A DNA stretch of 63,623 bases, the filler included, from Dugesia japonica (lineage: Eukaryota): the NCBI GenBank assembly GCA_001938525.1. It is 6 parts of 6 records of this genome, joined end to end, with 100 filler letters (N's around TTAATTAATTAA, not from the genome) between each part and the next. Parts side by side here need not be neighbours in the genome. Positions count along the whole stretch, not along the records: positions 13,650 to 27,349 come from MQRL01589065.1; 5 more parts are not named here. One strand, given 5' to 3'. Shown here in pieces: positions 8,090 to 62,796 of the stretch (its first letter is position 1; each line of letters starts with the position of its first letter). The position numbers and the translations under genes were made by a program. The notes below the pieces were generated by a model, which had not been told where the DNA came from, ran no database searches, and saw only the letters and a list, made by a program, of their open reading frames with translations.

Positions 8090-8420
8090 AATCTGGATAA
8101 AAAAGTTTTTCAAAAATTTTAAAAATTTCTGCTGTTCACCCTGATTACCATAACAATTTGATTTAAAAATTTAAATATTTAAACAAAATGGACTCTCCCC
8201 CGAATTTCTGTAAATTTTTTGAACTTGAAAATTTAAACAATTCACCTAAATTCTACCAAACTGACCATTGTGAGCAAATACCTTATCAAAAATAACCAAA
8301 ATGAACAATGTTAGCAAATTTTCAATTGAAATTAAGCAAATTAATCATAATCGCCCCAAACCTACAAAAATTGACAATCCCGAGGAAAATCCTTTATAAA
8401 AGTAATCAGGTTCGATTTTA
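8090..8420. repeat. Dispersed repeat with AAACTGACCA / GAGGAAA subunits, related to 40100-40800
   Basis: Shared CTGTTCACCC, ACCAAACTGACCA and CCGAGGAAA motifs. Confidence 0.5.
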
Positions 8421-8811
8421 CTGAGTAAAATTTCTTATCAAAATGAAAAAACAATGAAAGATAATGATTTACAAAAATTATTAAAAATGAAAAATAACAA
8501 AAAAAATAATTATAATTACCATAAAAAATTATTAAAAATAAAAAGTACAAAAAATATAAAAAATTATAAATTGAAAAATATGTGTGGATTTATCTATTAA
8601 GTGTGCTGAAAGGTCTATGTGTCGATTTGTTTTAGTGTCAATTTGTCTGGGTTGAATTGTCTAGTAAACATAGCTTAGATAACAAAAATTTGAATAGATA
8701 GAAGATATTTTTTATCAATATTTTTTAAATAAAAAGTGTAATTTTTTAAAATGTACTTTATATGGAAAGTTGACTGTTATTTAAAATTATTTAAAAATAA
8801 ATACCTTATAG

Positions 8812-9228
8812 CAGGTATCGGTAACCTTTTCTAGTCGTCGGGTATATTTATGATATAAAAAATTTCCGTGGGTACAAAAAAACACGAACACACACACCTT
8901 GAAAATACCGCACAAGAATACGTCGTATGATCAGCTTATTTTTCATTCTCACTATTTTTGTATACGAAATATTGATTGTGGGAAAAGAAAATATTTAGTT
9001 TAGTACATGCACAAACAGACGTTTCTAGTAGACAAAAACTTTGATTGAGTTCTTAGTCAAAATTTAATTAAAGGTTATTAACCATTTTATATAAACTGTA
9101 CAATTATTCAAATAGAGAAATTAAAATCACATTGTCCAATTTTTATTACATCTATGAATACTTACTGGTTTTTATATATTTGAATGTTGACACCAAGATG
9201 CCCAAGAGAACCACGTTGTCGATCCCTT
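8812..9228. mobile_element. hAT MITE
   Basis: Imperfect TIRs CAGGTATCGGTAAC / GTTGTCGATCCCTT; 8-bp flanks CCTTATAG / CTTTAGAG. Confidence 0.6.
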
Positions 9229-9695
9229 CTTTAGAGAATAATTATTAAAATAACTTAAAAATTTCAGGCTAATCACTAAACAAATGATAATAAACTAAAA
9301 TGTGCTATAATTAAACAGAAGTCTAAGCATTATAACATGTACAAGCATTGAAATAGTTCCTAAATCTAATTGAAATCTGCATTACTCAAAACACAAGAAT
9401 CACCATAAAATAAAATATCTGGATTGTTTAGGTATTTCGGTTGACAATATTGTTGGGGTTCCACCTGAGTTTGTGGTATAAAAACATTGCTGGGGAAAAA
9501 CAGCCTTCAGGGGACCCGTTCAAGAATTTAATCTAAAGTCCCTATTTAGATTTTTGGTATAGAGTGGTTGGCTTCCAACACTTATTTGAGGTGCACACAC
9601 GTATACATTTGTTTCGGGTTTAACATGTTTCCTTATTTGAAATTAACCAAAATCAAATAAAAAATTATTAAAACTAAGATTTATTTGGTGACATT

Positions 9696-10057
9696 CTACA
9701 TCAAATCTAGAGCCCCCGGGTCTAACCACTGGGTAGGCTCATCTACCAAATAGTTTAAGGCGGCTTCGTCGTCTTTGTCGTTCCAACGGATACACGCTTC
9801 ATTCCCTAGATGCCTGGATAAATCTGTTATGCAACGATGTAGGAAGTCAATTTTGTGCTGTAATATCTGTTTAGTCTGTTCCGCCAACTCACTCGGCTTT
9901 TTCACTATAAAATCGAGATTCTTAATTAAGCGGTTGCGTTGTGCCAAATGGCGAAATAAAGCTCGTTCTGTTTGTCTTTTAAGGTGACGCTCTACGAGAA
10001 GCTTTTGGATTAGCCGGTGGCATCTACGCAGACTGGTGGGTAATTGTATACGTGGCA
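9696..10057 (-). CDS. Module D: ATG-less basic/helical ORF of ~120 aa after a splice acceptor
   Basis: ttattatctgtttag|TG CCA CGT in frame; stop at 9696; AATAAA at 9680-9685; the track's hydrophobic N-terminus is the polypyrimidine tract. Confidence 0.6.
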
Positions 10058-10264
10058 CTAAACAGATAATAATCATTAAGATAAGAGATAAACTAAGCAT
10101 TTCAAAATTCAAATGAGATCAATAAAGATATCAATCCAGACAAAATAAATTAGTACAAATTCAAGAAGTCTTTTATTTACAAATGAACAGTAATTGCAGA
10201 ATTCAGGGCCGCGATATTTGAGTGCTCTTTTCTATCATAAGCGGCTCAAGCGGCATTCTCTTTC

Positions 10265-10560
10265 TTATTCCAGAATGACATTCAGCAGTTTATTCTCACG
10301 GTCATGGAGGGATCGAAAACTTTTTGCAATGGACTCGATTTGTGACTCCCAGAGCCTTTCTTGGGCATGGGAGGCCTCTGCTTCTTGGCGGAATGCTATG
10401 CATTTCTTTTTGTATCTCTTTACCTCACCTTCTGAAGTGGTCGTGTTGACCTCCCATCGACGTTTTGCAAGGCGATACAAGTACCATGTCATCTCAGTGT
10501 CTTCACTTGATTGACATATTTTTTTAGTGGGTGCCGAGGAGCGGTTTTAAGATAAATGCA
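10265..10560 (-). pseudogene. Module C: coiled-coil ORF of ~98 aa after a splice acceptor, one early in-frame stop
   Basis: ctaat..catcctcatctttgcag|TG CAT TTA TCT TAA AAC.. in frame with track ORF 10265-10492; TGTAAATAAA at 10172-10181. Confidence 0.55.
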
Positions 10561-10720
10561 CTGCAAAGATGAGGATGTCAATTAGTAGTTATAGAAAATT
10601 AAAAAAATCAAACAACAAATTTGATATTTAAAAGATTATTATTCCTTATAATAGCTTATGGAATTCATCAGTAACGTAAAGATACAGTGTGAATACTTTA
10701 GTAATAAAAAAAACAAATAT

Positions 10721-11145
10721 TTATAATGAAGTCTCATTGGCGGGATTCGCGTTCTCGGAATTAATGCTCTCGCCGGAATTACGGATGTTCCACAAATTAT
10801 TCTGAACGAAGGCATTCAGCTCAGAAAAAGGAGGTAAGTGTTCAGTAGACAAACTCACGATGGAAGGGCCTACCTGCTCAATCTGGACGGTTCGTGGTTC
10901 TCCATTAATATCTAACTGAGTTGTGGTAACGGCGTGGTAGACAGCACGTGTGTGATCGGGGTCCGTCCAGTTATAATAGGCCGCACGCTCGTTTGCGTCC
11001 CACTGTCTTTCATCCTCTATTTTATCGGCCGGTAAGTTTGAACGTTCTACGAGAACCCCAGCATCACGGTTATGCGGGTACTTGTAACGTTTAAAAATCG
11101 TACGCGCCGTCCTTCTATCAAGCACGATTTCCCCTTTATATTCCA
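10721..11145 (-). CDS. Module B: ATG-less 141-aa ORF after a splice acceptor, unknown product
   Basis: actaacatattttatag|TG GAA TAT in frame (branch-point-like ACTAAC); open 141 codons, relatively GC-rich. Confidence 0.65.
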
Positions 11146-11286
11146 CTATAAAATATGTTAGTTTTTTTTATCGTGTATAATTAGTGGTAAAATAATAAGA
11201 AAATGTAAGTGTAACTACTTGATTGAAATATTATTTATTTTAGTAAAAACAAAGAAGAAAATTTGTAATGAACGGCAGTCATAGTT

Positions 11287-11487
11287 TCAAGATGGCGATT
11301 GAACTTCTTCGTCCATATCCACATTAAAGTTCAATGGGAACATCTCGACGAAACACTGCAAGTCCGTTTCATCAGGATGTTCCACCAGATGAGGAAACAA
11401 GTGGTGGCCAATAAGTTGTTTGAGCCGAGCCGTCTTACGCTGCTTCCGAATCAAGCGGAGTGTATTTCTTAACTCAGCTGGAATACT
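11287..11487 (-). CDS. Module A: 66-aa ORF with no N-terminal ATG, basic N-terminal half and acidic C-terminal half (absent from ORF track)
   Basis: ttttcattacttttag|AGT ATT CCA = SIPAELRNTLRLIRKQRKTARLKQLIGHHLFPHLVEHPDETDLQCFVEMFPLNFNVDMDEEVQSPS*; AATAAA at 11234-11239. Confidence 0.55.
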   Translation of the reverse strand, partial: SIPAELRNTLRLIRKQRKTARLKQLIGHHLFPHLVEHPDETDLQCFVEMFPLNFNVDMDEEVQSPS

Positions 11488-12272
11488 CTAAAAGTAATGA
11501 AAATTTTAAAAGATTCTAGTTCATCATACTAATGACCTTCTCAAATAAAAACTAAAATAATTTAGAACTAACGAGCGCCGCTAACCTTCAGTTTTTGGTT
11601 AATGTAAACTCCTATAACAGATAATCCCCAAAGTCTGTGAGGGTAATAATGTTTATTATTATCTCAGCTAATTATTAATACACTCACAATCAATATTTTA
11701 ATAGTACTATTAAATCTTCTAGACATAGGCTAACAATCATAAAGATTCTAGTCGAGCTGGGACTAACAGTTTTTATTGCAACTATAGTACTTTTAACGAG
11801 AATAATTATTACGACATTAATAATAATATCAATGATAATAATACACTAATAGTGTGGTCTCTTAATAATAATAATGAGGTTAATATTAGTGATACTAATT
11901 TAGATGCCAATAATAATGTTAAGGATAGTAATAGCAATCATGTTAACAAAATTATTAATTTGGCCAATAATAATGGTGTGACCACCTTTAGGAATTGTCT
12001 TAATACAGAATATTGGCGATAGTTTTACTTACAATAAGTTCCAAAATAAGCTGACGGATAATAGACATCAAATTATTAATAAGAATGATCATTATAACAA
12101 CAGAATGATGGTAATAATATTTTGAATAAAATATTGATGTTTAAATTAGTAATTATCAATACATGACTAGCGACAAAACATTCGATCTTAAATCAAATAA
12201 CAGGAATAATTTGTAATATTGATTATTTACTATGATAGTGGTGGTTGCAATCGCATCTAATAGAAAAAGGAA

Positions 12273-12517
12273 CTACCGGTGCAACAAGTCATCTAGATCG
12301 GCATTACTGGTAAACTTAAATAGGCCACTAATCATTGTTATGAGAGTGAAAAACACAAGTATGTATGTAATAATATGAGTAACACTCCTGAGGCAATGGG
12401 GCAGGCCATGACAGGGTTTATAGCCAAATTCACTAAAGTCCATACACAAATCTCGTAGTGACTCAGTGCCAGAATCAATATCACACACCAATTCGCATAA
12501 TTTCTTGTGGATTCCAT
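12273..12517 (-). CDS. Small Cys-containing hydrophobic (TM-like) ORF; frame ambiguous
   Basis: 72-aa frame with IITYILVFFTLITMISGLF overlaps a 59-aa ATG frame (MESTRNYANWCVILILAL..) that is also hydrophobic. Confidence 0.3.
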
Positions 12518-12689
12518 TTTACGCCAAAAGGCTAGTCTAAGTGATCATTGCATCAAAACAGAGAAATTGAATCGGATAATAATTATACTCGTGATATTTC
12601 TCAACACAGAAATAACACTGTCAATAACTACGATTTAGACTTTTCTGACATGGTGATCGTTATAGTCGTTGTTGGAATTTCAACAATTG

Positions 12690-12846
12690 GATTTATTTTA
12701 TAATTACAATTATTGTGAGAGTAAATGTTGAACTTAACCATTGATCGCATTTGAGATTTCATTAAAATAAGAAAAAGCTTCGATCAAAATAAAATTTATT
12801 TGTTAAAAGGTTCAAATTTTCGATAATAGTCTTCTTCAGATATTGG
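12690..12846 (-). repeat. Copy of short hammerhead-bearing (Penelope pLTR-like) repeat, degenerate core
   Basis: Matches 57995-58157; minus strand CTGAAGA-agactattatc-GAAA. Confidence 0.65.
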
Positions 12847-13549
12847 CTTCTTGAGATATTCAATACAATAGATCTTTGTCACTCAATTCTTTAAATTTTA
12901 TCGAAATTTTATTGGTTTATTTTTTTTATACTTTTAATTTTAACGATTTTAATTTTTATTTTTAAATCAACTCAAAAAATTTCAAAATTTTTTTTTCATT
13001 AATACAGAAAAGTCTTTTAGATATATTATACTAAGAATTTTTTAATTTTTTTAAATTTTTGTTATTTTTTTGAAAATTTTTAAAAATTTTATTGTGTTTT
13101 TTTAATATATAATTTATGTTATTTTAAATAAATGTTATTTTTTAAAAATTTCTTTTTTAAAAATCATTCAAAAAGGAACTAATTTTACATAAAATTATAA
13201 AATTAATTTTTTTTGAATTAAAATTTTTTTTAAAAGTTAAATTCGTATTAGGACAACTAATTAATATATATAATTAATATTATTTCGTTTTTTAAATTTT
13301 TTATATAAAAAATATATCTATTTTAAACATATTATTTATAGATATTGATATAAACTTTTTTTTTAAATCAAAAATATTTTTTCAAATATTTTAATTGTTG
13401 AACACTACATTAATCTGAGGTTTATATTCTTTAATTAAAATTTGTTCATGTTTCTTTCTGTGAAGTGTAGAAATTTAGCATGTTCCTAATGTTTTCCATG
13501 TAATATGATGATTTTCTGGTAAAACATTATGTTTGTTTTGAAAGTGTTT

Positions 13550-13649
13550 NNNNNNNNNNNNNNNNNNNNNNNNNNNNNNNNNNNNNNNNNNNNTTAATTA
13601 ATTAANNNNNNNNNNNNNNNNNNNNNNNNNNNNNNNNNNNNNNNNNNNN
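13550..13649. other. Artificial scaffold spacer
   Basis: N44-TTAATTAATTAA-N44, exactly 100 nt; identical spacers at 27350-27449, 36190-36289, 45228-45327, 55257-55356. Confidence 0.97.
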
Positions 13650-16600
13650 TTTTAGCGGATGGATGGCAACCAGAAGTGTATGGCAAATTTGAAGTTGAGT
13701 ATCAGGGGAGAACAGTATCGCATGAAATGACAGTATTGAAAATGAGTGAGGATTGCATATTGGAAACGGATCTAATTCTATTATTGATGAAAAATGTAGT
13801 TTTGGATATGACCACATTGAAAATATTGAATTCCAGAGAAAATTTATATATGAAGGATAATGAAGTATATACAAACGAAAAATTGGTGATACCGAGGAGG
13901 AGTCAAGTATTTTGTATTGCGAAAACCCAAGCAAACTGTAAAGAGGATATGAATTTTGAACCACATGAAGGGTTCTCAAAGCGATATAAATTGACCGGCG
14001 AGGGAAATAGTAAAATTGTCTGACGAAGGAAAAGTGCCAGTCAACGTACTGAATATGACAGAAGAAGATATTACGATATATCCAAATTCAAAAATCGNNN
14101 NNNNNNNNNNNNNNNNNNNNNNNNNNNNNNNNNNNNNNNNNNNNNNNNNNNNNNNNNNNNNNNNNNNNNNNNNNNNNNNNNNNNNNNNNNNNNNNNNNNN
14201 NNNNNNNNNNNNNNNNNNNNNNNNNNNNNNNNNNNNNNNNNNNNNNNNNNNNNNNNNNNNNNNNNNNNNNNNNNNNNNNNNNNNNNNNNNNNNNNNNNNN
14301 NNNNNNNNNNNNNNNGCGTGGACAGACAATGAATTAGGTACGTGTGCGGTGACAAAACATTCAATAGTATTAACAGACGAAACACCAATAAAGTTGCGAA
14401 CTTACAAACAAGCCGAAGCAAACCGAAAGATCTGTGAGGATAAAATTGACGAAATGCTAAAGTGTAAAGTAATCGAGTCAAGTTGTTCACTGCGGTAATT
14501 TCCAGTGGTATTGGTGAAAAAGAAAGATGGAACCATGAGATTCTGTATCGATTACAGACAACTAAATGCNNNNNNNNNNNNNNNNNNNNNNNNNNNNCCA
14601 GACATTAACGATATGTTAACGTTATTATATAATGCAAAGATATTAACGACATATGATTTGCAGAGTGGATATTGGCAAATCAAAATAGAGGAAGCAGACA
14701 AAGAGAAAACCACATTTTTAGCAGGCAAAGATTTATATCAATTTGTGCGAATGCCNNNNNNNNNNNNNNNNNNNNNNNNNNNNNNNNNNNNNNNNNNNNN
14801 NNNNNNNNNNNNNNNNNNNNNNNNNNNNNNNNNNNNNNNNNNNNNNNNNNNNNNNNNNNNNNNNNNNNNNNNNNNNNNNNNNNNNNNNNNNNNNNNNNNN
14901 NNNNNNNNNNNNNNNNNNNNNNNNNNNNNNNNNNNNNNNNNNNNNNNNNNNNNNNGACTTATTTGGGGCATCTGATATCAGACAAAGGAAAACAACCGGA
15001 TCCGACGAATATCGAAAAAATCAAGAATTTACCTGTGTCGATAAACGTGAACTACATTCAAGTGTTACTAGGAATGGCGAATTATTATCGAAAATTTATC
15101 AAAAGATTTGCGACAATCGTGAGACCTATTCAATCACTAGTGAAACAAGACGTAAAATTCATTTGGACAGATGAGCATCAAAAAGCATTTGAAACAATTC
15201 TAGAAAAGTTAATGACGGCACTGATATTGGTACAACCAGATTTTAGGAAATCATTTAGACTTGCAACGGATGCAAGCGGTTACGCAATGGGTGCAGTATT
15301 AAGTCAATTAGATGAAGAAGGACGAGAAAGAGTGATCGGATATTTTAGTAAAACATTNNNNNNNNNNNNNNNNNNNNNNNNNNNNNNNNNNNNNNNNNNN
15401 NNNNNNNNNNNNNNNNNNNNNNNNNNNNNNNNNNNNNNNNNNNNNNNNNNNNNNNNNNNNNNNNNNNNNNNNNNNNNNNNNNNNNNNNNNNNNNNNNNNN
15501 NNNNNNNNNNNNNNNNNNNNNNNNNNNNNNNNNNNNNNNNNNNNNNNNNNNNNNNNNNNNNNNNNNNNNNNNNNNNNNNNNNNNNNNNNNNNNNNNNNNN
15601 NNNNNNNNNNNNNATTACAAGCAAATAGAATAGCCAAATGGGCGATGAAGTTACAAGAATATGCACCGCTGGTCAAATACAAAACTGGAAAAGCAAGAGC
15701 AAAATTTACAGACGAACCAGAAGAAGTGTTAGAAAATAAAGCAGCCAGGGGTGAATGGATAGACTTACAGCAATTGATGAATCGAGACATACGATCTTTA
15801 TGTATGATATTGGCAGAGAATAAAGATTTTACCGGATTAAAAAAGGATCAGTACTAGGACGAGGAAGTGAAAATAATACTAGAGTATATATCTCACTTTG
15901 ACTTGAGTAAAGTGGAGTGTAACAAAGCGATTAAAGAACACTTAAAGAAACGAGGTGGTAGATATACCATGGTAAATGAGTGGTTAATGATGAAGAAAGG
16001 TGATCAACTATTATTGGTAATACCAAAATGTAGACGAGTAAAAATACTTGAGCAGTACCAAAATGGAATTCTAGGAGGTCATATGTCAGCAAAGAAAACT
16101 GAATCAAAATTACGAGCTAAATATTATTGGCCTCANNNNNNNNNNNNNNNNNNNNNNNNNNNNNNNNNNNNNNNNNNNNNNNNNNNNNNNNNNNNNNNNN
16201 NNNNNNNNNNNNNNNNNNNNNNNNNNNNNNNNNNNNNNNNNNNNNNNNNNNNNNNNNNNNNNNNNNNNNNNNNNNNNNNNNNNNNNNNNNNNNNNNNNNN
16301 NNNNNNNNNNNNNNNNNNNNNNNNNNNNNNNNNNNNNNNNGGCATTTGCATTAAAGGATCAAAAAGCGTCGACAATCGCCAGAGTATTAGTCGATAAGTT
16401 ATTCAGTCGGTATGGACCACCGAAAACGATATTGACAGATCAAGGAAAGAACTTCATGAGTGAATTAATGAAAGAAATGACTAGTTATTTTAATATTCAT
16501 AAAGTACGGATATTGGTGTATCATCCACAAACGGATGGAATAACGGAGCAATTCAATCAGACATTGACTAGAATGTTATCGAGTTATGCGACGAAATTCC

Positions 16601-17510
16601 AGAGAGATTGGGACAAACATTTGAATTTGTGTTTANNNNNNNNNNNNNNNNNNNNNNNNNNNNNNNNNNNNNNNNNNNNNNNNNNNNNNNATGTACGGTC
16701 GAGAATGTAATATGCCAATAGATTTGGAGCATCAGCCACCGATATCGCAGTACATGGGCGAAGATGATTATGTTACTGGTATGAAAGAGAGAATGCGAGA
16801 AATATAGAAATTGGCAGCGTTAAATGCGAAATTTAATCAAGAAAGTTATAANNNNNNNNNNNNNNNNNNNNNNNNNNNNNNNNNNNNNNNNNNNNNNNNN
16901 NGAGAACATCCCGCAACAAAAGCTTCACCTTTTAAACTTATGTACGGTCGAGAATGTAATATGCCAATAGATTTGGAGCATCAGCCACCGATATCGCAGT
17001 ACATGGGCGAAGATGATTATGTTACTGGTATGAAAGAGAGAATGCGAGAAATATAGAAATTGGCAGCGTTAAATGCGAAATTTAATCAAGAAAGTTATAA
17101 GGAATTGTATGATCGAGAAACAAAGCCCCGTACGTTTAAAAAGGGTGATATGATACTGATTAATACATCAACAATTGAAATTGGAACCACAGATAAATTA
17201 AAACGACCAAACAAAGGACCGTATTTAGTGTTAAAAACAACTGCAAAAAATCTAAAAGTAAAGGAAGTTGGAAAGCCACTCAAGAAGCCAAGTATTGTTC
17301 ATGTATCGAAATGTAAACTAGCAACAACCCAAGACGACAATGATAAAGAAAGCGATGAGGAGACTGTTGAAAGAGTGAGACGAGTCAAGGTCAAGCCAAA
17401 AACGGAGGACAGTGACGAGGAGGTCAAACAAAACTTTAAAAAGACAAAAGGAGTTAGTTTCAAACCGAGATTAATTGATGAGGAGAATCGATACCCAATC
17501 AGGTCCAGAC
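13650..17510 (+). pseudogene. gypsy pol: protease end, RT, RNase H, integrase
   Basis: VLVKKKDGTMRFCIDYRQLN; DLQSGYWQI; YLGHLIS; LATDASGYAMGAVLSQ; GGHMSAKKT..YYWP; TDQGKNF..YHPQTDG; GPY motif; C-terminal RYPIRSR. Confidence 0.95.
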
Positions 17511-20500
17511 AGCAAATAATGATGATAATGGGGAAAACAATCAAAGCGGTAGACGTCAATGTGAGTACATGCAATCAGAGGAATCTAGTCTTGCGATGTA
17601 AAATATGTCACTGTACAAGTTCTATTACAGTGCCATTAAATAAAGTGCTTATGAGCAAAATATGTTTTCACTGTTTACAATCGATTTATGATAACTTAAC
17701 GTTGATGGAGAAAAGTGTCAAACGAGAATCATTACAAGAGGATAGGAAGGAACCCAATCGTTCCACATGTGAATAATGTAATGAAATAGCGTTCAAACAG
17801 AAAGTAGACTCGGACTTATATCAGCAATGGTGTAATAGTTACCTGTGTAAGGCTAAAGGAATTATTGACAATGAATTGGAGGGCTTACATGTACATATGA
17901 GAGGATCAACAGCAGCCAATTCTATTAGACGAGATATAGAATTAACTCATGACGAAATTTTACAAAAATTCAAATTAAATGATCAATTAAAAATTTATGA
18001 AAATAGACGAGATATGCTTAATCAATATTATTCTTCAGTGACGGACGACTGGAAGAAAGGAAATCGAAAATGCGACAATCCAAGATGTGGACGATATAAC
18101 ATGAAAGGACTAATTCCCCAAATTCAGACAACGATAACGGGGGAAATGGTTACGATTCACTAGAGGAAGTGGTAAAAAGCGGGATGATGGACTATTGTGA
18201 ATTAAGCGGACGACCACCGCATGCAGAGTAGGGGGATACACCAAAAATCACTAAATTAAAGGATGCTGTATGGGAGGAGTTTTTGACACAACAAAAGAAG
18301 TATGAAGCAGAGAATAGTCAGAGAGTCAAAGCTGAGGAAGACGATATATTTAACGCAGAGACGATAGCTATGATGAGAGCGTATTTTATAGATAGTGTTG
18401 ATTCCAACAGCCGTACTAGAAAAGATTAAGGCGTGCGGTGAAGGATGTTATCAAAAATGGATCCAGGAACATAAAAAGGAAGGAAAACCGAGATTACCGG
18501 AACATAAAGACAAAAAGACGCCCGGAGAGCGGCCAACGTCAAAAGAGGAGCGAAAAAGAAAGGAAAAAAATAAGGAAATAGAAACTGCAATATTATTAAC
18601 AGTAGAAAGAGTATTGCGTCGTGGAATGGACATACCTAAAGAGAAAAAGTTGGAAATGCAAGCGTATTATCAAAGGAGAAAACGCAAATGGTGTGCAGAA
18701 CGTCCAGGAGAAAAGTTTCCCACGATACGGGATGGGTATAGGATGGAGAGATGGCCGAGAGATCAAGAACTCCAAAAGTATCATGAACGAGAGTATAAGA
18801 GAATGCGGTGTGCTTTACAAAAAGCTAGAGGAATATTTAAAAATTGAGGAATCGTACAACGGAAAATCTCTTATCGAACAAGATTGCGAAGAGCGATTCA
18901 TAAGAAGTGAAGATATGGTAATTGAGTACCAGAGAATAGCAGATGTGTATCCACATCCATTGTTGGTAGAAGAGAGTGAAGCGATGAAAAAATAATACCT
19001 ACAAGCAATGCAGCGTAAAGCAAAACAAGAAAAAGAACAGGATTCGAGCAAGCGCCAAAGTCAAGTGGAGATGTGGAAATAAGAATGGGGCAAACAATTG
19101 CAAAAATGTTATGGAATCACGGAACCAGAAACGAAAACTAAAACGCTAAAGGAAGCAGAAACATTGAACTTTTGAGGGATTATTGAGGACGACACAAAAG
19201 ATAATGACAAAGTTGAGGACGAGATAGTAGTAATTGGAATGATGGACCTTAAGGGCAATGTCCTGTTTGAGATGCCTTTTACACCTGAGTTAATGAAGGA
19301 GATTAGAGCAATTCAAGAAAAACAAGAAGAAAGAAAGGTTGGAACAAGACAATATGAGTGTGGAGTGAAAAAGAATCAAATAATAGAACAAGAAATTAAC
19401 TTAGTGATGGAACAGGCAACGATTAAAGAACCGAGTCGAGGAACTCCGTTACCAGAACCACCACAAATGGAAATGACACGTCAGAAGGAAATTATGTATA
19501 CCCGATGAAGAAATCCGAATCACAGGACCCTGTTTACGAAAATGAGTCAGGAGATCTAAAGGTGGAAACAAAGAGGACATACTTCTTACCTACAATCAGA
19601 ATTCGGGATTATTCGAAGCCAACAGAGAGTGTAGTTTTTACTACTACCACTATATTCATGTGTTCTATTCTACGCGTGACCGGTATGAGCCAGTCTGGCT
19701 CGGATTCAGAGGCAAATGTCAGAAAAAACGGGCGGGGTATATCTCGCAAGTCTGGAGAATCGAACTACGGGGAGTGATGGGAATTCAATGGAACCGGTTC
19801 CCATTAGGTATATGGAGACAGCACGCCACCTTACGAAAAGAAGAGTGGCCTATGATGGATATGAAAATGCGTATAGTAGACAAAGAGATGCAGAAGTTAC
19901 GTTCCAAGGGTCACGTAGAAGAAAATGGTTTTTTCGGATTAAGCAATATCAGTCTTTAACATATTGGATGCAAGACGGGATGTTACAAGAATATAGATGG
20001 GAACGTAACCAAAACGAAATGATAATGAAGCTTAATCAAGAAAATGTGGAGTGGTTAGAATTAGAATATATATTATTAGACGAGATGCCACCGAGCAACA
20101 AGGCAATAACCGTCAAACCGACGACAAAAGGGAGAACAAAAGCGAAAACCTACTTAAAGACGGCAATGGTCAAGTCAACAACAGAGAAGTGGAGGACGAG
20201 GGTGTATTCAAAAATGACAACGACAGCGATAACAACTATCATGAAGAGAGGTACGACAGAAACCAGTGTACAAAGTAAAAGGAGGAACCATATGATGACG
20301 GGGTATGCGAAAACGACAACTGAAAGTGAATCAACGAGGAAGCCATCGAATGTATTAAATAAACANNNNNNNNNNNNNNNNNNNNNNNNNNNNNNNNNNN
20401 NNNNNNNNNNNNNNNNNNNNNNNNNNNNNNNNNNNNNNNNNNNNNNNNNNNNNNNNNNNNNNNNNNNNNNNNNNNNNNNNNNNNNNNNNNNNNNNNNNNN

Positions 20501-20714
20501 NNNNNNNNNNNGTGGTGGAGTAGCGGGCGTCATTACGATTATCATGATGACGATTATAACAATATTAATTTGTAAAGCGAAACGAGGGCAGTATTCGAGA
20601 CTGCGTTTGGAACCGGAATTAAGAGAATTGACAGCAAAATATTTGCATCCGCCAAGAGAGTTGGTGCGATCGGGAGTTCCAGAGGGAGGAACTGGGTTGC
20701 TATGGAGTTATTGA
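17511..20714 (+). pseudogene. Decayed ~1000-codon extension of pol: Cys-rich part, charged helical region, putative ectodomain, Thr-rich stalk, TM helix and short tail
   Basis: In frame with integrase; CxxC pairs (CKIC, CFHC, CE*C); 17060 and 17876 ORFs share a frame across one stop; TM GGVAGVITIIMMTIITILIC followed by KAKR. Confidence 0.6.
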
Positions 20715-20930
20715 GGAGAATAGTGAGAGTGAAGTTGTAAATAAATTTCCTGAAATTTAACAGTAAGGTACACAATTTAGTTTTGAGTAGCTCNAAATGT
20801 AAAGTAGAGCATAGCTGATTAAATTGAAATTAAAATGTGAATTAGTTGAATAAATTTGAATTTTATATGGATCACTATAAAATTTATCGTAGTATTTAGT
20901 TAGTAAAGAATGGAACAGAAACAGATAACA

Positions 20931-21425
20931 ATGAACGGACAACTAGCAGTAAATGTGGATCTAGACGACTTCGACAGAGCAATTACGGAGGAACCATGAC
21001 AAACGTATACCCAGATGCTTAATCAACTTTTAAATCCTTATTTTACAATGGAAATTTTGTGGGACGAACACTGCCGAAGCGTAATGAGAAATTCAGATAT
21101 GTTAAACGAGCAACTTCAACAGACACGACAATTAAACGCAATCCTTGTGGAGAATGTAAATTTTCATGTGTTGCAGATACATCGACTGAATAAAATAGTA
21201 GAGAATCAGAGACGACAGATTACCGAGAATCAGAATTTTTACCTACAAACTTTGAGTGGAACTAACAAAATAGTAGAGGATCTGAGACACCAAGTGGATG
21301 AGTTACAAGCCTATAATGCAGAGCTTATTCTATCCGGAATTAATCGACTACCGAGCGTATCCGCCATCCTGAACACTATCGAGACGAGCGAGAGGATGTG
21401 GTATCGAGAAGAGAGTAATGTATGA
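20931..21425 (+). CDS. Accessory coiled-coil ORF (one internal stop upstream of 21015)
   Basis: ATG at 20931 in frame with track ORF 21015-21425; heptads IVEDLRHQVDELQAYNAEL; AATAAA at 21518. Confidence 0.6.
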
Positions 21426-21588
21426 TAAAAGGTGCTAAAACGTAGAGTATTGTAAAGTATGTGTGTTAAATAGTAACTGTATTACTATTCAAAAAAAATC
21501 AAAAACAGTAAAAGTATAATAAAAGTAGAGTGGCAATTATATTTATTTAATCAGTGCGTAATCAGAATAATTCCAATTTGTATATAGA

Positions 21589-21809
21589 ATGTCTGAAGAT
21601 TTTCAAAGGCTGTGGAGTTGTGGGGTGGAGACGATCACGATAGAGAAGTCAAGTTTGGAACAGAAATCAATCGCAGAATTACAATTTCGGTATTAAATTT
21701 ACCTTGTGAGCATGTAGCAGTTTGTCAAAAATGTCACCAGAGAAACGAGTTTAAGCGATGTGAAGTGTGTAAATGTCCAATAGAGGAGTGGCATGTGGTG
21801 TATTTATGA
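21589..21809 (+). pseudogene. IAP/MDM2-type C-terminal RING finger (C3HC4_3-like), first CxxC missing
   Basis: LPCEHVAVCQKC..RCEVCKCPIEEWHVVYL*; tatag|aATG upstream but out of frame; TGTAAATAAA at 21828-21837. Confidence 0.75.
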
Positions 21810-21996
21810 GTGGAATACCCGGTAAATTGTAAATAAAAATAAAATCAGGAAACAGTACAGTAAAAGTAACAAAGGAAGCAATATTAAAACAATTGGTACA
21901 TATCAGTCTCAATTAAAAGTTGAATTATCAGTAACTCCCAATATCTTAATATGTAGATATTCCATATTATGATTTACGTATATTTCAATTAAGAGA

Positions 21997-22984
21997 ATGG
22001 CATCCAGATATCAGAAAAGTATGAGTCGACAACGAGTGCGATCAAAAGATATTTTGAGAAAAGTAATTCCATCAACAATGACAACTCCCGTCTATATTAC
22101 TAACCGAGAACACAGGAAAATAAAGCGAGTGAACAGCTACGCGGTGGCGAGTCGCCGAAATTACAGTCAAATATACTTGAAATAGAGGATCAGGTTGATT
22201 CATGTTGCAGATCAAGTTGAATCAATCCAAATCCAATCCCCAAGGTCACGATGAACCATTTGATGAAATAGAACAATCCCGAGCTCAGTGGAAACAGGCA
22301 TGTTTAGCCAAAGAAGAGAAAATACATCAACTACAACTGGAATTGTCATCCATGCAAAAAAGACATCTAGATCAGGTCAAAGAATTAGAAACGGAGATCA
22401 AGTGGCAGAGCAAGAAAATAAAAATGCTCGAGAAAACCATGGAAAATAATAACGAAATCAGAATTGTGAATCAACGAACTCCCCAAGTGAAGACGAATAA
22501 ATTGCAAGAAGAAATCGATCAATTAATAAAAGAAAGTCGAAACCAACAATCGCAAAGAGAACAAGATATGATCGAAATTCAAAACCTAGAAAATGCCGTA
22601 AAGCATCTGCGCGATGAGAATGTTCTCTTAAAGGAAACTCCTATTCGAGTAGTAATCCCTCCACGTCAAATTAAAACTACAAAGCGAGAACAGACCTTTT
22701 ATACCTATAAAATCAATGGGCGATCAGTAGCCCCACAAATCAGCTTATTAGACCAAAGAGCGAATCATAAAAGAAAAGATCAAGTGTCTCAATTTTCCCG
22801 TCAATTTCCCAATTCTCAGTCCAGTCAATCCAGCCCATCCTATCCTACGACTTGGACAAATGAACAATCGCAATGGCCATATTCAGCGTCCGAAGAGGAT
22901 CTGTTCAAAAGGTTAAAAATCTGGTTAAAAGGGAATAACTGGACTCAGAGAACTCGGAAAAAGTTCGGAAAAGAAAATTCATAA
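21997..22984 (+). pseudogene. Accessory long coiled-coil ORF with basic N-terminus and S/Q/P-rich tail (frameshift near 22185)
   Basis: aagag|aATG at 21997; heptads EEKIHQLQLELSSMQKRH..LQEEIDQLIKE..IQNLENAVKHLRDENVLL; AATAAA at 23058. Confidence 0.6.
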
Positions 22985-23196
22985 GCAGAACTAGGTCATA
23001 AATAATGACGGAGATTACATTATTGATTAACTTATTATGGTAAAAAGAAATGTTCTCAATAAAGGTTTTAAATTATTAAAAAATCGCCGAAAATTATGTT
23101 ACAACTTAATTACAAATAATTATAATCTGACTTTTTTCTTGTTAAAATGAATCAAAAATCTACATTATTTTTCGTTTTCATAATAATAATTAGTAA

Positions 23197-23620
23197 AAGA
23201 TTGGAAAGTGGTATATTGAAAAGTTAAGACGCAATTGTATTCGTCGTTCCAGATTCAATGAAGGCGTTCAACCATTAACTACGTTCAAGATCTCAATACC
23301 CACAGAAGTGAAATTTAATTCTTATGTCACTGCGGATAACAATCTCCTAGTTGCAGATATTCCATCTACTCATGACATTCTAAATCAACTACTAGCACCA
23401 AATTTAAACGATGTAAATGTTGATGATGACAACTTTATTGATGTTCTACTCGATCTGACTATTCACGACCGCATGTGAATGGTGGGCGAATCTACGACGT
23501 CTTTTGGAAACATTGAATGAAGTCCTCACAATTACCACGAAATCTAGAACTACGGAGATCACAGAGTCTGATTGCGATGAAGCCAAGGACAATGAGTCTG
23601 AGATGGAAGATCTAAATTAG
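23197..23620 (+). pseudogene. Fourth accessory ORF, acidic, decayed (absent from ORF track)
   Basis: Stop-free frame KIGKWYIEKLRRNCIRRSRFNEGVQP..DVNVDDDNFIDVLLDL to 23478; acidic tail in a shifted frame ends TAG at 23620. Confidence 0.45.
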
Positions 23621-24969
23621 TGATCCAAAGTTTACTGGTCATCTCTCTGCGTTCTCTTCTTTTTCTTCCGTAGTCGTTATGATCCACAGCTTTTAGCTGA
23701 CTAAAACAAGACAGGTTTAAACTTGGGGAGAATTTTCTAGCATGAAAGATGACTCCGTTTATCTCGGAGTATGCTTTTTATTCGATGGCCAAAGAATTCT
23801 CACTTAATAATGTTAAATAAACGAAAATCAAGAAAATTTATTTAAGTCTCAAATGTTTTGACATTTAAATTTGACAAAAATTCCAAATCGAGTTATTCGA
23901 TATTTGGCGTGTGAATGGTTCATTTCTTGGAGTGATTAATTATGATAATAAGACTATTGTAAAAAGATAGAAAATCTTAACTAGAAAGAAAAAAGACAGA
24001 AATCTACTGAGATGTATTTCGATATTTCTTTATTCCACAATAGAAGTTAATAGAATATTTTGAAATGAAAAACAAAAAGAAATATTGTTATGAAAATTAA
24101 AAAATAATTAATTAAATACATAATTGTGACACACAATATAGAAACTAAGCTAGATAATATTCATTATTCCATCGAAAACCTGTGGATTCATCAAATCTAA
24201 TATACAATCAACTATTCGTAATTCCAAACCGCGGCTTTCCGAGACATTACTATTCGATTTCAAATCTACAAACATTGTATAAATAGATCAACAACTACAA
24301 AACTACATTGAAAATTATCGACTGTCCTTTGTAACACGATTTGCATTGATCCGATCACTTTAGAACATACAGCCTGTAGAAGAATATATACAGAACTATT
24401 AATTATCAATAAAAGAACTTTCTCTTTGATTTAAATCAATAAATACAAAACATTCTAATTTTTGAAGATGAATTATAGTTAGAAATTTATGTTACAAATC
24501 AATCAAGCATATCATTCAATTAAATCTGAAGAAATAACTTTACTTTCACATAAAAATAATAGTTCTAAAAGAAATTTACTGTAAATTCAACAGAAAAGTA
24601 TTTAATTTTTGTTTTTACCGAATTTTCGACAATAGCTTTCACTATACAATAAGTTTTGAGAGATGCAGAATTGATTTCAACAAAGGAGCGATTGTGTTGA
24701 TAATCAATAAGCTTGTCAAACACGCATGGTATTAAGTTAATTCTATTAAAATGAATATTTTTATTCATCAATTCAATTATTAGATATTTTGCAAAAGCGT
24801 TTCATTTTCTCTTGGAAAAATTGAACAGATGTTGCTTATTGATTACACAAAAACTTCTTCAAAAAAGATAGTTATATATCATTCAAAAAATGTACATAAT
24901 TTTAAAAATATTGCTCACTAGGATTTTAAATTTTTTTTAATTAAATCTTTATAAATCTATACGATAAAT

Positions 24970-25248
24970 CAGTGGTTCTTAACCTTTTTAGTGGTCAGCA
25001 CCCCCTTGAATATGAAAATAAGCTCTCGCAACCCCTAAAAATGTGTTTATATATTTTATTTAAGAAGCATTTATTGCATAAGAAAATGAATACATTTACA
25101 ATATAAATTAATATATAACTGATGACAAGCGCGATGTGCTGAGAGACGCTAGACAGTGTACAAGTAGGGCTGTCACGTTGATGGGTATCAAGGTTCGTTT
25201 TCTTTTAATTTTTGAAATTTTTCTCGCACCCCAGATAAAGAACCACTG
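24970..25248. mobile_element. hAT MITE
   Basis: TIRs CAGTGGTTCTT / AAGAACCACTG; TSD CGATAAAT / CGATAGAT. Confidence 0.85.
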
Positions 25249-27926: not shown

Positions 27927-29631
27927 CATATTTGAAGAACAACTAAGTGATTAGAATATAAGTGATTAAAAATAAATATAACGTTAATTCGTATTATTAA
28001 AACAACAATATTTCGAATTTCCAAAACTCTCCCCTCCTTTAAAACGTTTTTCATCTTTTTAACCATTCTTTTCTTCTGGTTTTCAAACCATTTGGAAACT
28101 TGATTTCTACTTGATGTGCTGATACAAACCTCACTATTTGGTATTACTTCATATAGCAAACCGTTTTTCTTTTGTTTGTGTGGTTCTACTCGGACTAATA
28201 CCCACTTTTCAATTTTCTAGGCATTCTTCTCCAAATTCTGTCGCACTATCTCTTTTCTGCCTGTTCTTCTGTTTAAGAGCGTTTCCTCTTAGGTATGCAG
28301 ATTTATCTTTCTATCAAATACGATTTTGAAAGGAGAGAATTTTGCTGACTCTTGTATTGTAGCATTAATACTAAATACTACTCTCAGTAAAGTGTCTCCC
28401 AATCTTTTTCATTACATTTCCTTTTTATTCATATCTTAATCATGTCCCTTCACTGTTCGGATCGTTTCTTCTTTTTTTCTGTCTGAGCCGGTTGAATCAT
28501 TGTAATTATATCGGTTGAATTCCATTGATACGTTTTACTCTGACTTTTTCTCATTTTGAGTCTATGTGTTTCATGCTATATTGTGAACATAAACTCTCCT
28601 TTAAAAAGATCTAAAATTATGGCCAGACTTGCCATAAATTAAAAATCTGTCTTCTAATGAGCATTGATTTTGTTTATACCCACATTCTCAACAGCAGTAA
28701 CATTTACCCACTTGGAGTTTATCTTCACGAGATTCTAGAAATTCACTATGTCTGTTAAATAACATCTTGCAAAATATTTCATCAATACTGCCGGTTTTGG
28801 CCTCATCACCTGAGTTTTATCTTCCATCATCACTGGTTGGGTGCTCCTCTCATATACTCTTTTTAATGGCAAAACATTAACACGTATTTTATGTTTATCC
28901 TCTTCAACTCTATTTATGTATAGTTTCACTACATTTGTATAACTCATCTTTTTTGTATCATACAGATATCTTTAATTTCAGTGATTCATTGATAATTTCC
29001 TTGTTCTCGTGTTGTCAATGTTTCTTTCAACTTTGTATTTTTCACCTTCTTAGAGAGTACGTCATTAATTATTTCATCTTTACTTAGTTCTGAATTCATG
29101 ATATCATCTAACCGATTTCTTACTCTGATTTTGAATGTTGCGAATCTTCCTTCATTCTCATGTTTTGCCGTTGCTAATTCTAAAATCATATCTGAAAACG
29201 ATTTTATTTATCATATATGTGACTGTGAATCGTCTTTTGGCTTCCTCTGTTATGATATCAATTTTTTAAAAATCTTTTAAAAAAATTCCTGCTTTGTCTA
29301 ACAATAGCAAATCAAAGATATCCAAAAAATTAAAATCGTTAACGATAGTCCCACCTACGTTGAAGCTTCTTCTGCAGCTTTTTCATCATATTTTCTGACG
29401 TTAAAATTTTTTAATTCTTGCGTTTTTTTATAAAGCATCTAAAAACAAATTTCCGTTGATGCTGTTATTTTGTCAGCGCATTCACAGTTCTGGTGTGGTT
29501 GCCATTTACAATATTCTTGTCATCATATTTGATCATATTTGAAGAACAACTAAGTGATTAGAAAATTTATTAAAAATAATTTATAACGTTAATTCGTATT
29601 ATTCAAACAACATTATTTCGAATTCCCATAC
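27927..29631 (-). mobile_element. Internally deleted gypsy element with ~100-bp LTR-like direct repeats (same family as 566-3726)
   Basis: Direct repeats 27927-28026 and 29533-29631; PPT AAAGGAGGGGAGAG at 28040-28027; gag from ATG ~29514 with decayed zinc knuckles ~28620-28710; RNaseH-IN linker and IN end; RT deleted. Confidence 0.88.
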
Positions 29632-31139: not shown

Positions 31140-34100
31140 AGATGTCAAGGAATTATGGCAAGAAACGAAAACAAACGAGGATTTCAATTCAAATGAAAAG
31201 TGCGAAAGTTGGTTTCGATCAACATTTATTAAAGATAAATCGCTGGTTGAAAAATTACAAATCTATCATCAGTTAAACAAAAGGTTGTTGAAAAATATCG
31301 AAATTTCAAGATAAGAGTAAAAAACTTGTCCACGATATATTTGAAAGCAAAAGATCACAAGAGGAAATATGAAAAGTTTTATTCCGAATGGATTAAGAAG
31401 TGAAAAATTAAAAGAATNNNNNNNNNNNNNNNNNNNNNNNAATGATGAAAATGTCGAGAATTGGCTGCAAACCTTGATAAATTTTTAGCAAAAAGTAATG
31501 TTGTCAACGAAAGCTATGTAAGTGCAGTTAAGAAATCAGCTTTTAAACTAAAATATAATAAATTGAGAAGAGATTGAGAAGAAAACCAACAAACTATTCA
31601 AGAATTGGTAATAATATGCTACAATTAAGAGATTTAAATAAAGACCAAGNAAGAGAATTTCAAAGTATTCTCTGAAATATGTAGCAACAAAAATTTATAA
31701 TAGATATCATGGTAAAGCTCCCCCAAAAGTAGAATTCCTACAGCATGGTGCTTGATTTTGCTGTGGAAAAACAAACCATAGAAGAAGAAGTATTTAATAT
31801 GAATTTAATATGAAGGCCACGCTTTCAGAAATTGTGCAGGCACAATAAAGAGGACACAATAATCGAATAATATTATTAATAACAGTAAAATAGAGGGAAG
31901 AATCTATAAATGAATGTGAATCATAAATTGATTTTTAACATGATGCAATAAAAACTTTAAAATATAATGAAAAAATGCCCAACAACCCGTTGTATTTATT
32001 TCGTCAGTGAGGATGCATTTAAGAGTTTTAAAGAGAAAAATCGAGATATTGAAAGAAAACCTGATGTTAAACTGATGTATCAAAAACTTGATGGTAGAAA
32101 TTGGAGCAGTGTAAATTGTAATGGAATCAGTGTAGAGATTTTATGGGATTTATGAGCGTCTGTCTCAGTGATGAGTGAAGAAATATGGAAGAAGATTGGT
32201 TCACCAAAAATTCAATTTTCAAATGTAATGCTAGCTGAAGTATTTTCTGAGAAAAGTGAAAAATGCATAGGAAAAGCCATAATTAAATTATTTTAGAATA
32301 AAAAAGCATATATAGAGAGAAATAATTATTGTTAAAAACATTTATCCAAATTTTATTGGTGGTATCGATTAGAAGCGTTCGATTTCATAGATTAAAAAGA
32401 TGTTATATGCAAAGATAATAAACATTGTGATAAAAAATTGAATATACTCAAGTTAAATGCCAGCAATAGAATAATTGAATTAGTTGATAAATATGACCAC
32501 ACATTTATGAATTCCAAATTTGATGTAGATTTAACAAATATGACAATGTATAACATAAAAACTAAAGGAGAACCCGTATTGATAAATCCAAGAAGAAAAC
32601 ATATGTATTTAGAAGGCAAGATATACAAATTAATACAAAATCTATTATCAGAAAATATTATAAACCTTGTCGAAATCCATGGAATTCTCCATTAGTGATT
32701 GCTCCAAAAAAGATGGTTCTCTCAGAATGTGCCTTGAGTTTAAGAAATTGAATTCGGTAACTGAAAAATATTTATTTCCTGTTCCAGATATAAATATGCT
32801 ATTGGATACACTAAGTTTTTCACATCAATCGATCTAGGACAGGCGTATTGCCAAATTGAACTAACTGAGAAGTCAAAATTAAAAACAGCTTTCACCACAA
32901 AAATGGGGAAATTTGTTTCAATCGCATACCATTCGGATTATGCACCGCTCCTGCAACGTTTCAAGAATTAATGCATAAAATTTTCAACAAGATCTTATTT
33001 ACTACAGTGTTAGTTTATCTTGATGAAATTTTAATTTTGGGTCAGACACAAGACATTCATGATAAATTTTTTACAAAATGTGTTGAAACTAATTGAGCAA
33101 TCTGGTCTAAAAATTAATCCTGAAAAATTTATATTTAGTTTATCAAAACTCAAATTTCTTTGTCATACAATCAGTTCTAAAGGTGTTGAAACAAATGATG
33201 ACATTATTAATAAAGTAAAATAAGCTGTTATTCCAAAATGAGCAACCCAAATGTGAACCTTCTTAGAATTGACAAATTACTACCGTAGGTTTATTTAAGA
33301 TTACGCAAAATAGCCTGTCCATTAATACAACACTACATCGATCACAAAAAGTTGAATAGTGGACTGAAGAATGTGACAGCAGCTTTAAACTACTGAAAGA
33401 AAAATTATGTTATTCTACAATGTTGGCATTTCCAAATCCTCAANGCAAAATGATAAGCAAAAGCTTCTATGCAATTGTTGCTGTTTTGAGTCAATTATCA
33501 AGAGATGGCCTGGAAACTGTTACTGCTTATGCATCTCGTAATTTGAATGACCATGAAAAGAGTTTTTGTGTAACCAGAAAAGAACTATTGGAATTCCACG
33601 AAATTATGATTCATTTCATTATTTTTACAGAAAAAAGTTCACAGCAAAAAAAGCATTAGTGTTTATGAAGAAAACAAATAAACCAATTCCAGACGTGGAT
33701 TGCAAATCTAGCAGAATTGGATTTTGCTTTTCAATTTCGTAAAAGCATTGACCATGGGAATGCTGAATGGATTATCAAGAATATGATAAAGTTTATGCGC
33801 CCAATGTTTAACGACTCATCACAATGGAAAAGGTGAAAAATCTAGAATTAGAAGAATAAATATCGTAGAAAGCTCAAATTATAATTAAAAAAGTATCATA
33901 AAAATTCAAAATAATGATCAAATTACCAGATATAATTGAATATATTACAGATAAACGTTTCCAAGTTAATAAAAATTTAAATAATTGTATACACTTCAGA
34001 GATATTGATAAATTCGCCATGGAAGAAGATTTATTGATGTTTGTTGATTAAAATACGAAGAGGATTATTTTAGCAGGTAAATCAGTGGTTGGTTTAATAA

Positions 34101-36289: not shown

Positions 36290-37610
36290 CTTTATGATCT
36301 GTTCTTAGGATAAATCACTTTCCATATAATTAATGTTGGAAATAAATACAAAAGTAGTAAATTGAGAGCAATTCTTTCCGCATAGTACAATATTCTTTTT
36401 CATGTCATTGTGTGTAACCCATATCCAATTACTCTTTCTTGCCCATTGTTGTCCTTTTGAGATAGTACTACATCAATAGTATCGAAACTCGCAACCGTGT
36501 CCAAAATAAATCCTCTATTTATGTCTGGAAAATATAATATTGGAGACATCATTAGTGCTTCTTTCATTTCATACTAAAACTTCTTCTTATTCATTCACCC
36601 ATTCAATTTTTTTGTTACCTGGTCCACTGTACAGTTGTTCAAGCAATCTAGCTTTTTTCGAATAATCTTTAATAACTTGTGATAGTAATTGCAAATTCCC
36701 AAAAAACTTCTCATCTTTTTAACGCATTTTGGTTTACTAAAGTTCTTAATTGCTTCTATTTTAGTTGGATCTGTTTTGACACCTTCTTTACTAATAACGT
36801 GTCCCAAACTTTTAATCTCCTTTCGCACGAATTAAGATTTCTTCGGATTAACTCTTAGAGCAGCTTTCTTAATTTCTGGTAATACTTTATTGATTATTTC
36901 ATAGTGTTGCTCTTTGGTTTCGGTAAATATGAGAATATCATCTAAGCAATCGCTGCTTTTATTTTTCCGACTACATTATTCATCATTTCCTGGAACGTAC
37001 CTGGTGCTGCTGCAATTCCAAAAGGCATTCTATCGAAACAAAATTGTCCTTTTTTGGTTGAAAAAGCCGTCTTTTCTTGAGACTCTTCACTGATTTCCAC
37101 TTGATAGTATGCATTTTTCAAGTTTTTTGAGCTAAAATACTGCTTATTTTCCAAGGCATCTAACATTTCATCCACATTTGGCATATGAAAAGCTTGCCTT
37201 TTTTTTATTGCATTGAGCGGTCTAAAGTCTAAGCATAATTGTATATCCTTTTTTTCCATTTTTTTAAAACGCAGATTAATGGCGTATTCCATTGCAAATT
37301 ACACTTACCGATGATACCATTATCATATAGATTCTTGATGGCCTCTTCAATATTCTCCTTTAGATTCATTGGTTGGTTTTATGTTGATTGGTCCTCCTTT
37401 AGTGATTATTCGATGCTTCGTTAAGTGTGTGCATCTAATGTCTCATTTATCCGCCATAAATATATCCTCTTTATTCTGAATAATCGCAGTCAATCTATGA
37501 TCTTTGTTAATTTCTAGAATCTCGATTCCATGTCTCAATTGTTCACCAGTTTGTACCTGCCTTCCAAATTTTGCCTCGATATTGCAAACAAATTTTTCTC
37601 GATGATTATT
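36290..37610 (-). mobile_element. Decayed gypsy RT-RNase H fragment
   Basis: LCLDFRPLN, AYYQVEISEESQEKTAF, RMPFGIAAAPGTFQ, LGHVISKEGVKTDP, RSFLGICNYY. Confidence 0.92.
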
Positions 37611-62765: not shown

Positions 62766-62796
62766 GAGAGTGAATTGGCTATAGTGAATTAAACAT

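Follow-up and report, generated by a model that had tools for sequence, protein, structure and literature searches.

Probable leaky poly(A)-like clusters and the possible expression of 3' accessory genes in a decayed Ty3/Gypsy retrotransposon of Dugesia japonica

Accessory open reading frames (ORFs) in the giant Gypsy retrotransposons of planarians are already in print, and those of Burro / GYPSM1 include coiled-coil and RING proteins (PMC6431247). Here we analyze positions 20,715 to 24,969 of a 63,623-nucleotide (nt) stretch of Dugesia japonica DNA (assembly GCA_001938525.1; this part from record MQRL01589065.1), the whole of which is called the window. The stretch under study is a row of accessory genes in the 3' part of a decayed multi-copy Ty3/Gypsy retrotransposon; in order, ORF-A to ORF-D encode a likely membrane protein, a coiled coil, a RING finger, and a second coiled coil. 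The element resembles Burro / GYPSM1 in having a Gypsy pol, in being present in many copies in an AT-rich animal genome, and in its extended additional coding region and types of accessory protein (PMC6431247). The 5' half and the long terminal repeats (LTRs) are missing from the present copy, so that an env within the polyprotein and giant LTRs are not visible here. Of the apoptosis or ubiquitin cargo domains of Burro / GYPSM1, the RING finger was found among the window ORFs scanned with Pfam, and BIR, ankyrin, MATH, and BCL2 had no match there. For the dUTPase-like domain that lies between protease and RT in Burro / GYPSM1, the pieces at 13652-14096, where the region is cut by N, gave no relevant Pfam match. 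The available account of Burro / GYPSM1 is silent on how the accessory ORFs are expressed (PMC6431247), and the expression of accessory-gene rows in giant invertebrate LTR elements is undescribed in the literature that we found; figures and supplements of the primary Burro paper may cover it.

Other systems offer several routes. In Tor3b/4b of Oikopleura dioica, the gene after pol (env) is expressed from unspliced RNA whose internal promoter lies either within pol or in the intergenic space, and leader splicing is known for Tor3a (PMC4402516). Tor3b/4b have a single downstream gene with 5' ends mapped by rapid amplification of cDNA ends, whereas the present row is without a mapped start and consists of several ORFs, each with a poly(A)-like cluster behind it. 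Spliced messages have been called typical for the extra ORFs of LTR elements (PMC5408684). Cer1 of C. elegans is a Gypsy element with an mRNA trans-spliced to the spliced leader (SL) SL1, and its full-length RNA must skip the splice and SL sites; the SL1 addition takes place close to the 5' end of a cis-spliced mRNA, however, and resolves no row of 3' genes (PMC3315495). Flatworm SL operons consist of co-oriented genes ~100-200 nt apart with a poly(A) signal ahead of the next gene (PMC12582326, PMC8629364), the spacing having a median of 99 bp in S. mansoni (PMC12582326) and a peak near 100 bp in Macrostomum (PMC8629364). This layout is like that of our row, but such operons are defined by SL junction reads, none of which was among those listed here, and here spacer RNA occurs in poly(A) libraries. 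EVADE, a Ty1-Copia element, makes a subgenomic short gag mRNA beside its full-length RNA; it differs in concerning gag, in requiring a mapped intron, and in its superfamily (PMC12786077). Cer1 is a precedent for an SL-spliced Gypsy mRNA and Tor for internal promoters, and our literature search returned no account of poly(A) signals behind each accessory ORF; the primary Burro and planarian SL3 papers may bear on this. In the available sections, PMC13524379 does not mention splicing, and PMC11410931 and PMC7346339 hold nothing bearing on accessory-gene expression.

We hypothesize that leaky poly(A) clusters end each gene of the row and that the next gene is expressed as an unspliced mRNA from an internal start, a reading to which we assign a probability of about 0.4. 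The signal cluster in the 5' half of each spacer would end the RNA of the preceding gene, cleavage presumably occurring at AATAAA/AGTAAA clusters (spacer 2 gives the best hint), and the next ORF would be read from unspliced RNA begun at an internal promoter. The AGA before the ATG would be a start-codon context, with a purine at -3, and not a splice site, and full-length RNA would arise since the signals are leaky, without special suppression. The short gag mRNA of EVADE is likewise said to have an early 3' end. Leaky 3'-end signals in the spacers are likely to be real because the clusters lie modestly above chance, are kept in related copies, and coincide with a drop in depth at spacer 2, while internal starts may exist by elimination and precedent. 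Stand-alone homologues of ORF-B (150-159 aa) also favor this reading. If it is true, a poly(A) signal behind each gene would give full-length RNA several end signals to pass, a simple built-in brake on copying. The overall case is modest: the copy is broken, the motif statistics are weak, and no junction reads were among those listed. A preliminary description of this DNA had paired each poly(A) signal with a splice acceptor for the next ORF; the first half holds up modestly, through motif recurrence, conservation, and the spacer 2 depth drop, and the second half is without support, the acceptors being ordinary AGs with no listed junction and with unspliced reads across those of spacers 1 and 3.

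The four spacers between the ORFs of the row are 162-195 nt long with a GC content of 0.23-0.26, and each is two-part, the 5' half A-rich and the 3' half more T-rich (Table 1). The stop-to-next-ATG gaps are 196 (217 to the second ATG), 164, 188, and 163 nt, in agreement with the ~160-215 nt previously given from stop to acceptor. AATAAA stands at all five positions named in the preliminary description (20740, 21518, 21832, 23058, and 23816); it had been placed behind each ORF of the element, which applies to all but the last, since 23816 belongs to near single-copy DNA past ~23140. In spacers 1-3, TTGTAAA is found ~20-25 nt past the stop. Each of these spacers also holds one ACAGTAA with purines and GTA behind it, and these three are the only such matches in the entire window. 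In spacer 2, a ACAGTAAAAGTA unit lies in tandem with an AATAAA-bearing copy of itself, and ACAGTAAAAGTA therefore reads as a poly(A)-signal variant. By eye, the motifs of spacers 2-4 are kept in loose ends from related copies while the flanks have diverged. We take TGTAAATA to fit a Pumilio element; 3 of its 18 window matches fall in these spacers. The spacers were rejected as introns of one gene, since each upstream ORF stops before its spacer, and also as duplicates of one module, the mean column identity of their alignment being just 56%.

Table 1. Features of the accessory-gene row and of the surrounding window
Feature	Position	Strand	Content	Basis
Separate cassette	9696..11490	-	four small ORFs, T-rich spacers, YAG acceptors; holds TGTAAATAAA at 10172-10181	
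Decayed Ty3/Gypsy pol	13650..17776	+	RT, RNase H, integrase in that order; stops, frameshifts, N runs	Pfam
Broken post-integrase coding region	17777..20714	+	ends in ORF-A	reading frames
Spacer 1	20715..20909	+	GC 0.25; TTGTAAATAAA 20735, ACAGTAA 20760, AATAAA 20849, TATAAAA 20876, TTAG 20896-20903, AG 20907-20908	
ORF-B	20910..21425	+	coiled-coil protein; in-frame stop 20997-20999, second ATG 20931	
Spacer 2	21426..21588	+	GC 0.24; TTGTAAA 21450, A-run ~21491-21505, ACAGTAAAAGTA 21505, AATAAA 21518, TATAG 21583-21587	
ORF-C	21589..21809	+	frameshifted; C-terminal C3HC4 RING finger	Pfam zf-C3HC4_3, E 2e-06
Spacer 3	21810..21996	+	GC 0.26; TTGTAAATAAA 21827, AATAAA 21838, ACAGTAAAAGTA 21857, upstream ATGs 21951 / 21969, AGs ending 21993 / 21995	
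ORF-D	21997..22984	+	broken coiled-coil protein	
Spacer 4	22985..23140	+	AATAAA 23058; family similarity ends within ~23105-23140	
Near single-copy ORF-like remnant	23147..23821	+	AATAAA 23816; family membership not demonstrated	contig depth 7-37

Chance was assessed with dinucleotide shuffles of the spacers and with triples of real window DNA. AATAAA occurs 16 times on the plus strand between 17000 and 24500, 7 times in 5237 coding nt versus 6 times in 707 spacer nt. In shuffles, P for AATAAA in the first 110 nt of a spacer was 0.27, 0.52, 0.44, and 0.43 (product 0.03), and anywhere in the spacer 0.46-0.69 (product 0.12). By itself, AATAAA hardly departs from chance in spacers as A-rich as these (P 0.27-0.69 per spacer), in line with the earlier caveat that it is common in AT-rich DNA. 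Spacers 1-3 have three 7-mers in common (TTGTAAA, AACAGTA, and ACAGTAA). With the choice of motif allowed for, P was 0.145 by count and 0.039 and 0.011 with G/C content required; the values against the real window triples were 0.12, 0.014, and 0.004. The cluster of TTGTAAA, ACAGTAA, and AATAAA is modestly above chance. The motif TGTAAATAAA, picked after the fact, had P 0.006 in spacer 1 and 0.008 in spacer 3. It occurs four times in the window, at 57283 and at the three sites previously reported (20736, 21828, and 10172-10181 on the minus strand), the minus-strand match lying in a different cassette. Its UGUA overlap, pointed out earlier, counts for little in a planarian: 3P-seq did not find UGUA upstream of planarian poly(A) signals, on which ground UGUA was also ruled out as a CFIm site (PMC5068929).

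Eight of the 24 listed runs were examined, three as contigs (X1-X3) and five as raw reads (X4-X8). The raw reads number 521, from samples of ~6-26% of each run: 30 (X4), 165 (X5), and 28 (X8) on 19600-24400, and 160 (X6) and 138 (X7) on 20400-23400. X5 is stranded, as its depth at 24108-24400 is one-sided, and X6 and X7, from the same study, are assumed to be. Only 3 of the 298 X6 and X7 reads are at least 95% alike to the present copy, so almost all derive from other copies; expression of the present, broken copy itself was seen in no read. The sense depth falls across spacer 2 from 6.8 to 1.6 (X6), from 6.6 to 1.3 (X7), and from 7.0 to 0.3 (X5), compared with a ~3-fold fall in the DNA-like X3 contigs. 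Contig depth also falls there, from 8871 to 182 (X1) and from 1635 to 166 (X2), a hint only, as contigs cannot show RNA ends or levels and the RNA nature of X1 and X2 is a guess. RNA of related copies crosses the AGs of spacers 1 and 3 unspliced. The sense depth in bin 20804-20904 of spacer 1 (7.2 in X6, 6.5 in X7) equals that of the flanks; at 21979, upstream of the spacer 3 AGs, 9 of 10 X6 reads have one indel in common, and 8 X6 reads extend beyond 22037, past these AGs.

Several observations weigh against leaky signals combined with internal starts. No promoter motif is common to the four spacers; TATAAAA lies near a start in one of four (spacer 1), where related copies differ, TCAGT/TTAGT motifs are at chance level, and the putative planarian initiator core (PMC10558129, table S3) is found in none of the four on the sense strand. 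Most planarian promoters are without both TATA and initiator motifs (PMC10558129). In spacers 1 and 3, an unspliced leader would contain short upstream ATGs, 20-75 nt ahead of the starts. Read starts or ends nowhere form a pile in the element at the local depth of below ~10, and hence no RNA start or end was mapped. The spacer 2 peak lies just before the A-run and may reflect internal oligo-dT priming, and the even depth across spacer 1 disfavors strong cleavage at 20740. The sole contig ending in an A-run (X1) ends behind 20823, ~80 nt past the AATAAA at 20740 and thus too far away to mark its site. Finally, host transcripts that read through old copies may make up much of the RNA, because the antisense share of depth reaches 40% (X6) and 27% (X7) and almost all reads are less than 95% alike.

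Two further observations concern the same spacers. Four X1 contigs start with a T-run ~15 nt before the ORF-B start (~20895-20909), which may be an antisense RNA tail or a priming artefact. Spacer 4 (22993-23126) is common to reads and contigs with different upstream sequence (X2, X4, X5, and X7), and its RNA is mostly antisense in X5-X7.

The foremost rival is that the spacers are inert A-rich linkers, whose AATAAA and AG are products of base composition; any reading of the ORFs would then be from long read-through RNA. AATAAA and AG near the ATG are expected in about half of shuffles, the count of common 7-mers alone does not depart from chance (P 0.145), and the even depth of spacer 1, the plentiful antisense RNA, and the lack of mapped ends would all suit such linkers. 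Against this stand TTGTAAA being equidistant from three stops, motifs that are kept in diverged copies, and the recurrence of TGTAAATAAA behind an ORF in the unrelated minus-strand cassette. Moreover, translating four ORFs in a row from one eukaryotic mRNA is difficult. We therefore regard inert spacers as rather unlikely, if a serious contender.

A second possibility is cis-splicing: a leader from the 5' LTR, common to the mRNAs, would be joined to an AG ahead of each ORF, each mRNA would end at whichever internal poly(A) signal comes next, and signals within the intron would be skipped. This is the usual route for the extra ORFs of LTR elements (PMC5408684) and is taken by Tor3a (PMC4402516); it would also take out the upstream ATGs. 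An AG lies 1-7 nt ahead of each start, and AG|aATG is present where the preliminary description had it (G at 21587 and 21995, ATGs at 21589 and 21997). The other two proposed acceptors did not fare as well: there is no AG at 20928, and the AG at ~23195 is without an ATG within 58 nt. For ORF-B, the first in-frame ATG (20910) is itself AG|aATG, and the AG nearest to the ATG at 20931 is at 20924. AGA precedes three starts (P 0.001-0.004). AGA|ATG in 3 of 3 starts was rejected as a conserved acceptor, as related contigs are without the AG before 20910 and the homologues favor the 20931 start. These contigs do keep a TAG a few bases upstream of 20910 (6 in X3, 4 in X1), a point for leader splicing. 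The purine at -3 would account for the AGA|ATG context without splicing.

In other respects the proposed acceptors look like chance. An AG within the last 10 nt of a spacer has P 0.44-0.61 in shuffles, and the upstream pyrimidines of the AGs adjoining the starts fall between the 45th and 82nd percentiles of 5451 window AGs. A strict CTRAY branch site was found at none of 10 scored plus-strand positions versus 2 of 4 in the minus-strand cassette, by a generic pyrimidine/branch rule and not a host-trained model; the AGs thus have neither pyrimidine tract nor strict branch site. Junction reads would be expected at about the local depth. The earlier proposal to look for SL or LTR-leader junctions in RNA yielded none among those listed in the 521 raw reads of the five runs: splice joints inside the element are absent from those listed save a 3-read back-jump in spacer 1, piles of up to 4-5 reads may lie among those unlisted, and RNA crosses spacers 1 and 3 unspliced. 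Cis-splicing of a common leader appears unlikely on these grounds.

The remaining explanation is an SL operon: cleavage at every poly(A) signal would divide a single precursor, and the AG that follows would receive the host spliced leader by trans-splicing. The distance from signal to AG (64-163 nt) fits flatworm operons and their spacing of ~100 nt, SL1-spliced Gypsy mRNA is known from Cer1 (PMC3315495), and SL reads make up ~0.001-0.1% of RNA-seq and could escape at a depth below ~10 (PMC12582326). The same arrangement of signal and AG is expected by chance in about half of shuffles, and neither a pyrimidine tract nor a branch site marks the acceptors. Operon processing would remove the RNA between signal and AG, yet at spacer 1 oligo-dT libraries contain it at full depth, and the spacer 3 AGs are crossed by reads, in both cases from other copies; at spacer 2 the depth is too low for a judgement. 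Of 527 loose ends, the 40 listed (at most 6 per run) include no leader-like end at an acceptor, and piles of up to 4-5 reads may be present among the others. Flatworm leaders end in AUG (PMC12582326), and joined at AG|aATG this codon would miss the reading frame in all three cases; it would be in frame at alternative AGs in spacers 1 and 3, and the leader-frame argument therefore does not decide. An SL operon inside a retroelement would exceed the Cer1 precedent. Host trans-splicing is possible but unsupported, and we consider it improbable both in this form and as the fuller idea that the 3' half is a virus-borne SL operon in which operon processing versus read-through decides between accessory-protein synthesis and genome packaging.

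The window overall is AT-rich animal DNA crowded with decayed mobile elements. The order of the pol domains, reverse transcriptase (RT), RNase H, and integrase, is that of Ty3/Gypsy (Pfam: RVT_1 6e-06, RT_RNaseH_2 6e-21, Integrase_H2C2 1e-07, rve 1e-05). An identical 161-nt duplication (16691-16851 and 16940-17100) around the integrase N run is likely an assembly artefact. Self-BLAST revealed no long direct repeat within the window and no 3' LTR, and an N run cuts off the 5' part. A 3' LTR beginning with the TGT at 20736 was discarded, since X3 depth stays level on both sides (11427, 11808) and the motif recurs in spacers 2 and 3. The post-integrase region has a GC content of mostly 0.35-0.49, without a long AT-rich spacer. 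ORF-A, whose stop TGA is at 20712-20714, has a segment rich in Thr and Ser, a hydrophobic stretch, and a short tail of basic residues, and is, judged by this sequence, likely a membrane protein.

Pfam gave no match for the ORFs of the post-integrase region. The stand-alone homologues of ORF-B are P0026, P0027, P0030, and P0031; P0026 (157 aa) is 40% identical to ORF-B across 117 aa, and in a by-eye alignment the homologues suit the start at 20931 better than that at 20910. P0025 was dropped as a relative, being a repeat protein with a chance match. A related contig holds ~300 extra bases inside ORF-C at 21684, and the RING gene of the present copy may be internally deleted. For ORF-D, a homologue was sought among proteins of 143-455 aa and none was found. 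A protein atlas search returned only unnamed clusters at 0.87-0.90, with low recognition; no related locus was found in the metagenome or viral contigs scanned, and an Rfam scan of 8500-25000 gave a single sub-threshold microRNA match.

Depth tables and loose ends agree on where the similarity of the multi-copy family ends. The summed depth of X3 contigs is 300-11800 over 19600-23141 and 7-37 from 23142, with a step from 951 to 8 near 23140; summed depth is not a copy number, and the step marks the family boundary. Given this collapse, a fifth unit (~23195 to 23816) is not demonstrably part of the element family. Farther downstream, 24100-24400 belongs to a different repeat or transcript, in which X5 RNA is 18-23 deep on one mate direction and 0 on the other, and a 45-nt non-canonical skip (24265-24311) occurs in three runs.

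Leader or SL splicing could be tested better on the minus-strand cassette, because its first two ORFs need a spliced-on start. The first (11487-11290, 66 aa) follows TTTTAG directly in phase 0 without an ATG and bears an EHxDETDxxCxxxMxPL motif; the second (140 aa) is without an in-frame ATG and needs phase 1. The strict CTRAY match at two of its four acceptors compares with 229 of 5451 window AGs. Elsewhere, 45659-46129 (minus strand) is a host exon of a DUF4062/NACHT (TEP1-like) gene, the best matches being 46-56% identical invertebrate proteins. Judging by translations, further decayed mobile elements lie at 567-3745, 28363-29503, 32396-33656, 36598-37298, 58262-59398, 61165-61395, and 62544-62789, which we take to be Gypsy pol pieces, non-LTR (Penelope-like) RT, and DNA transposase fragments.

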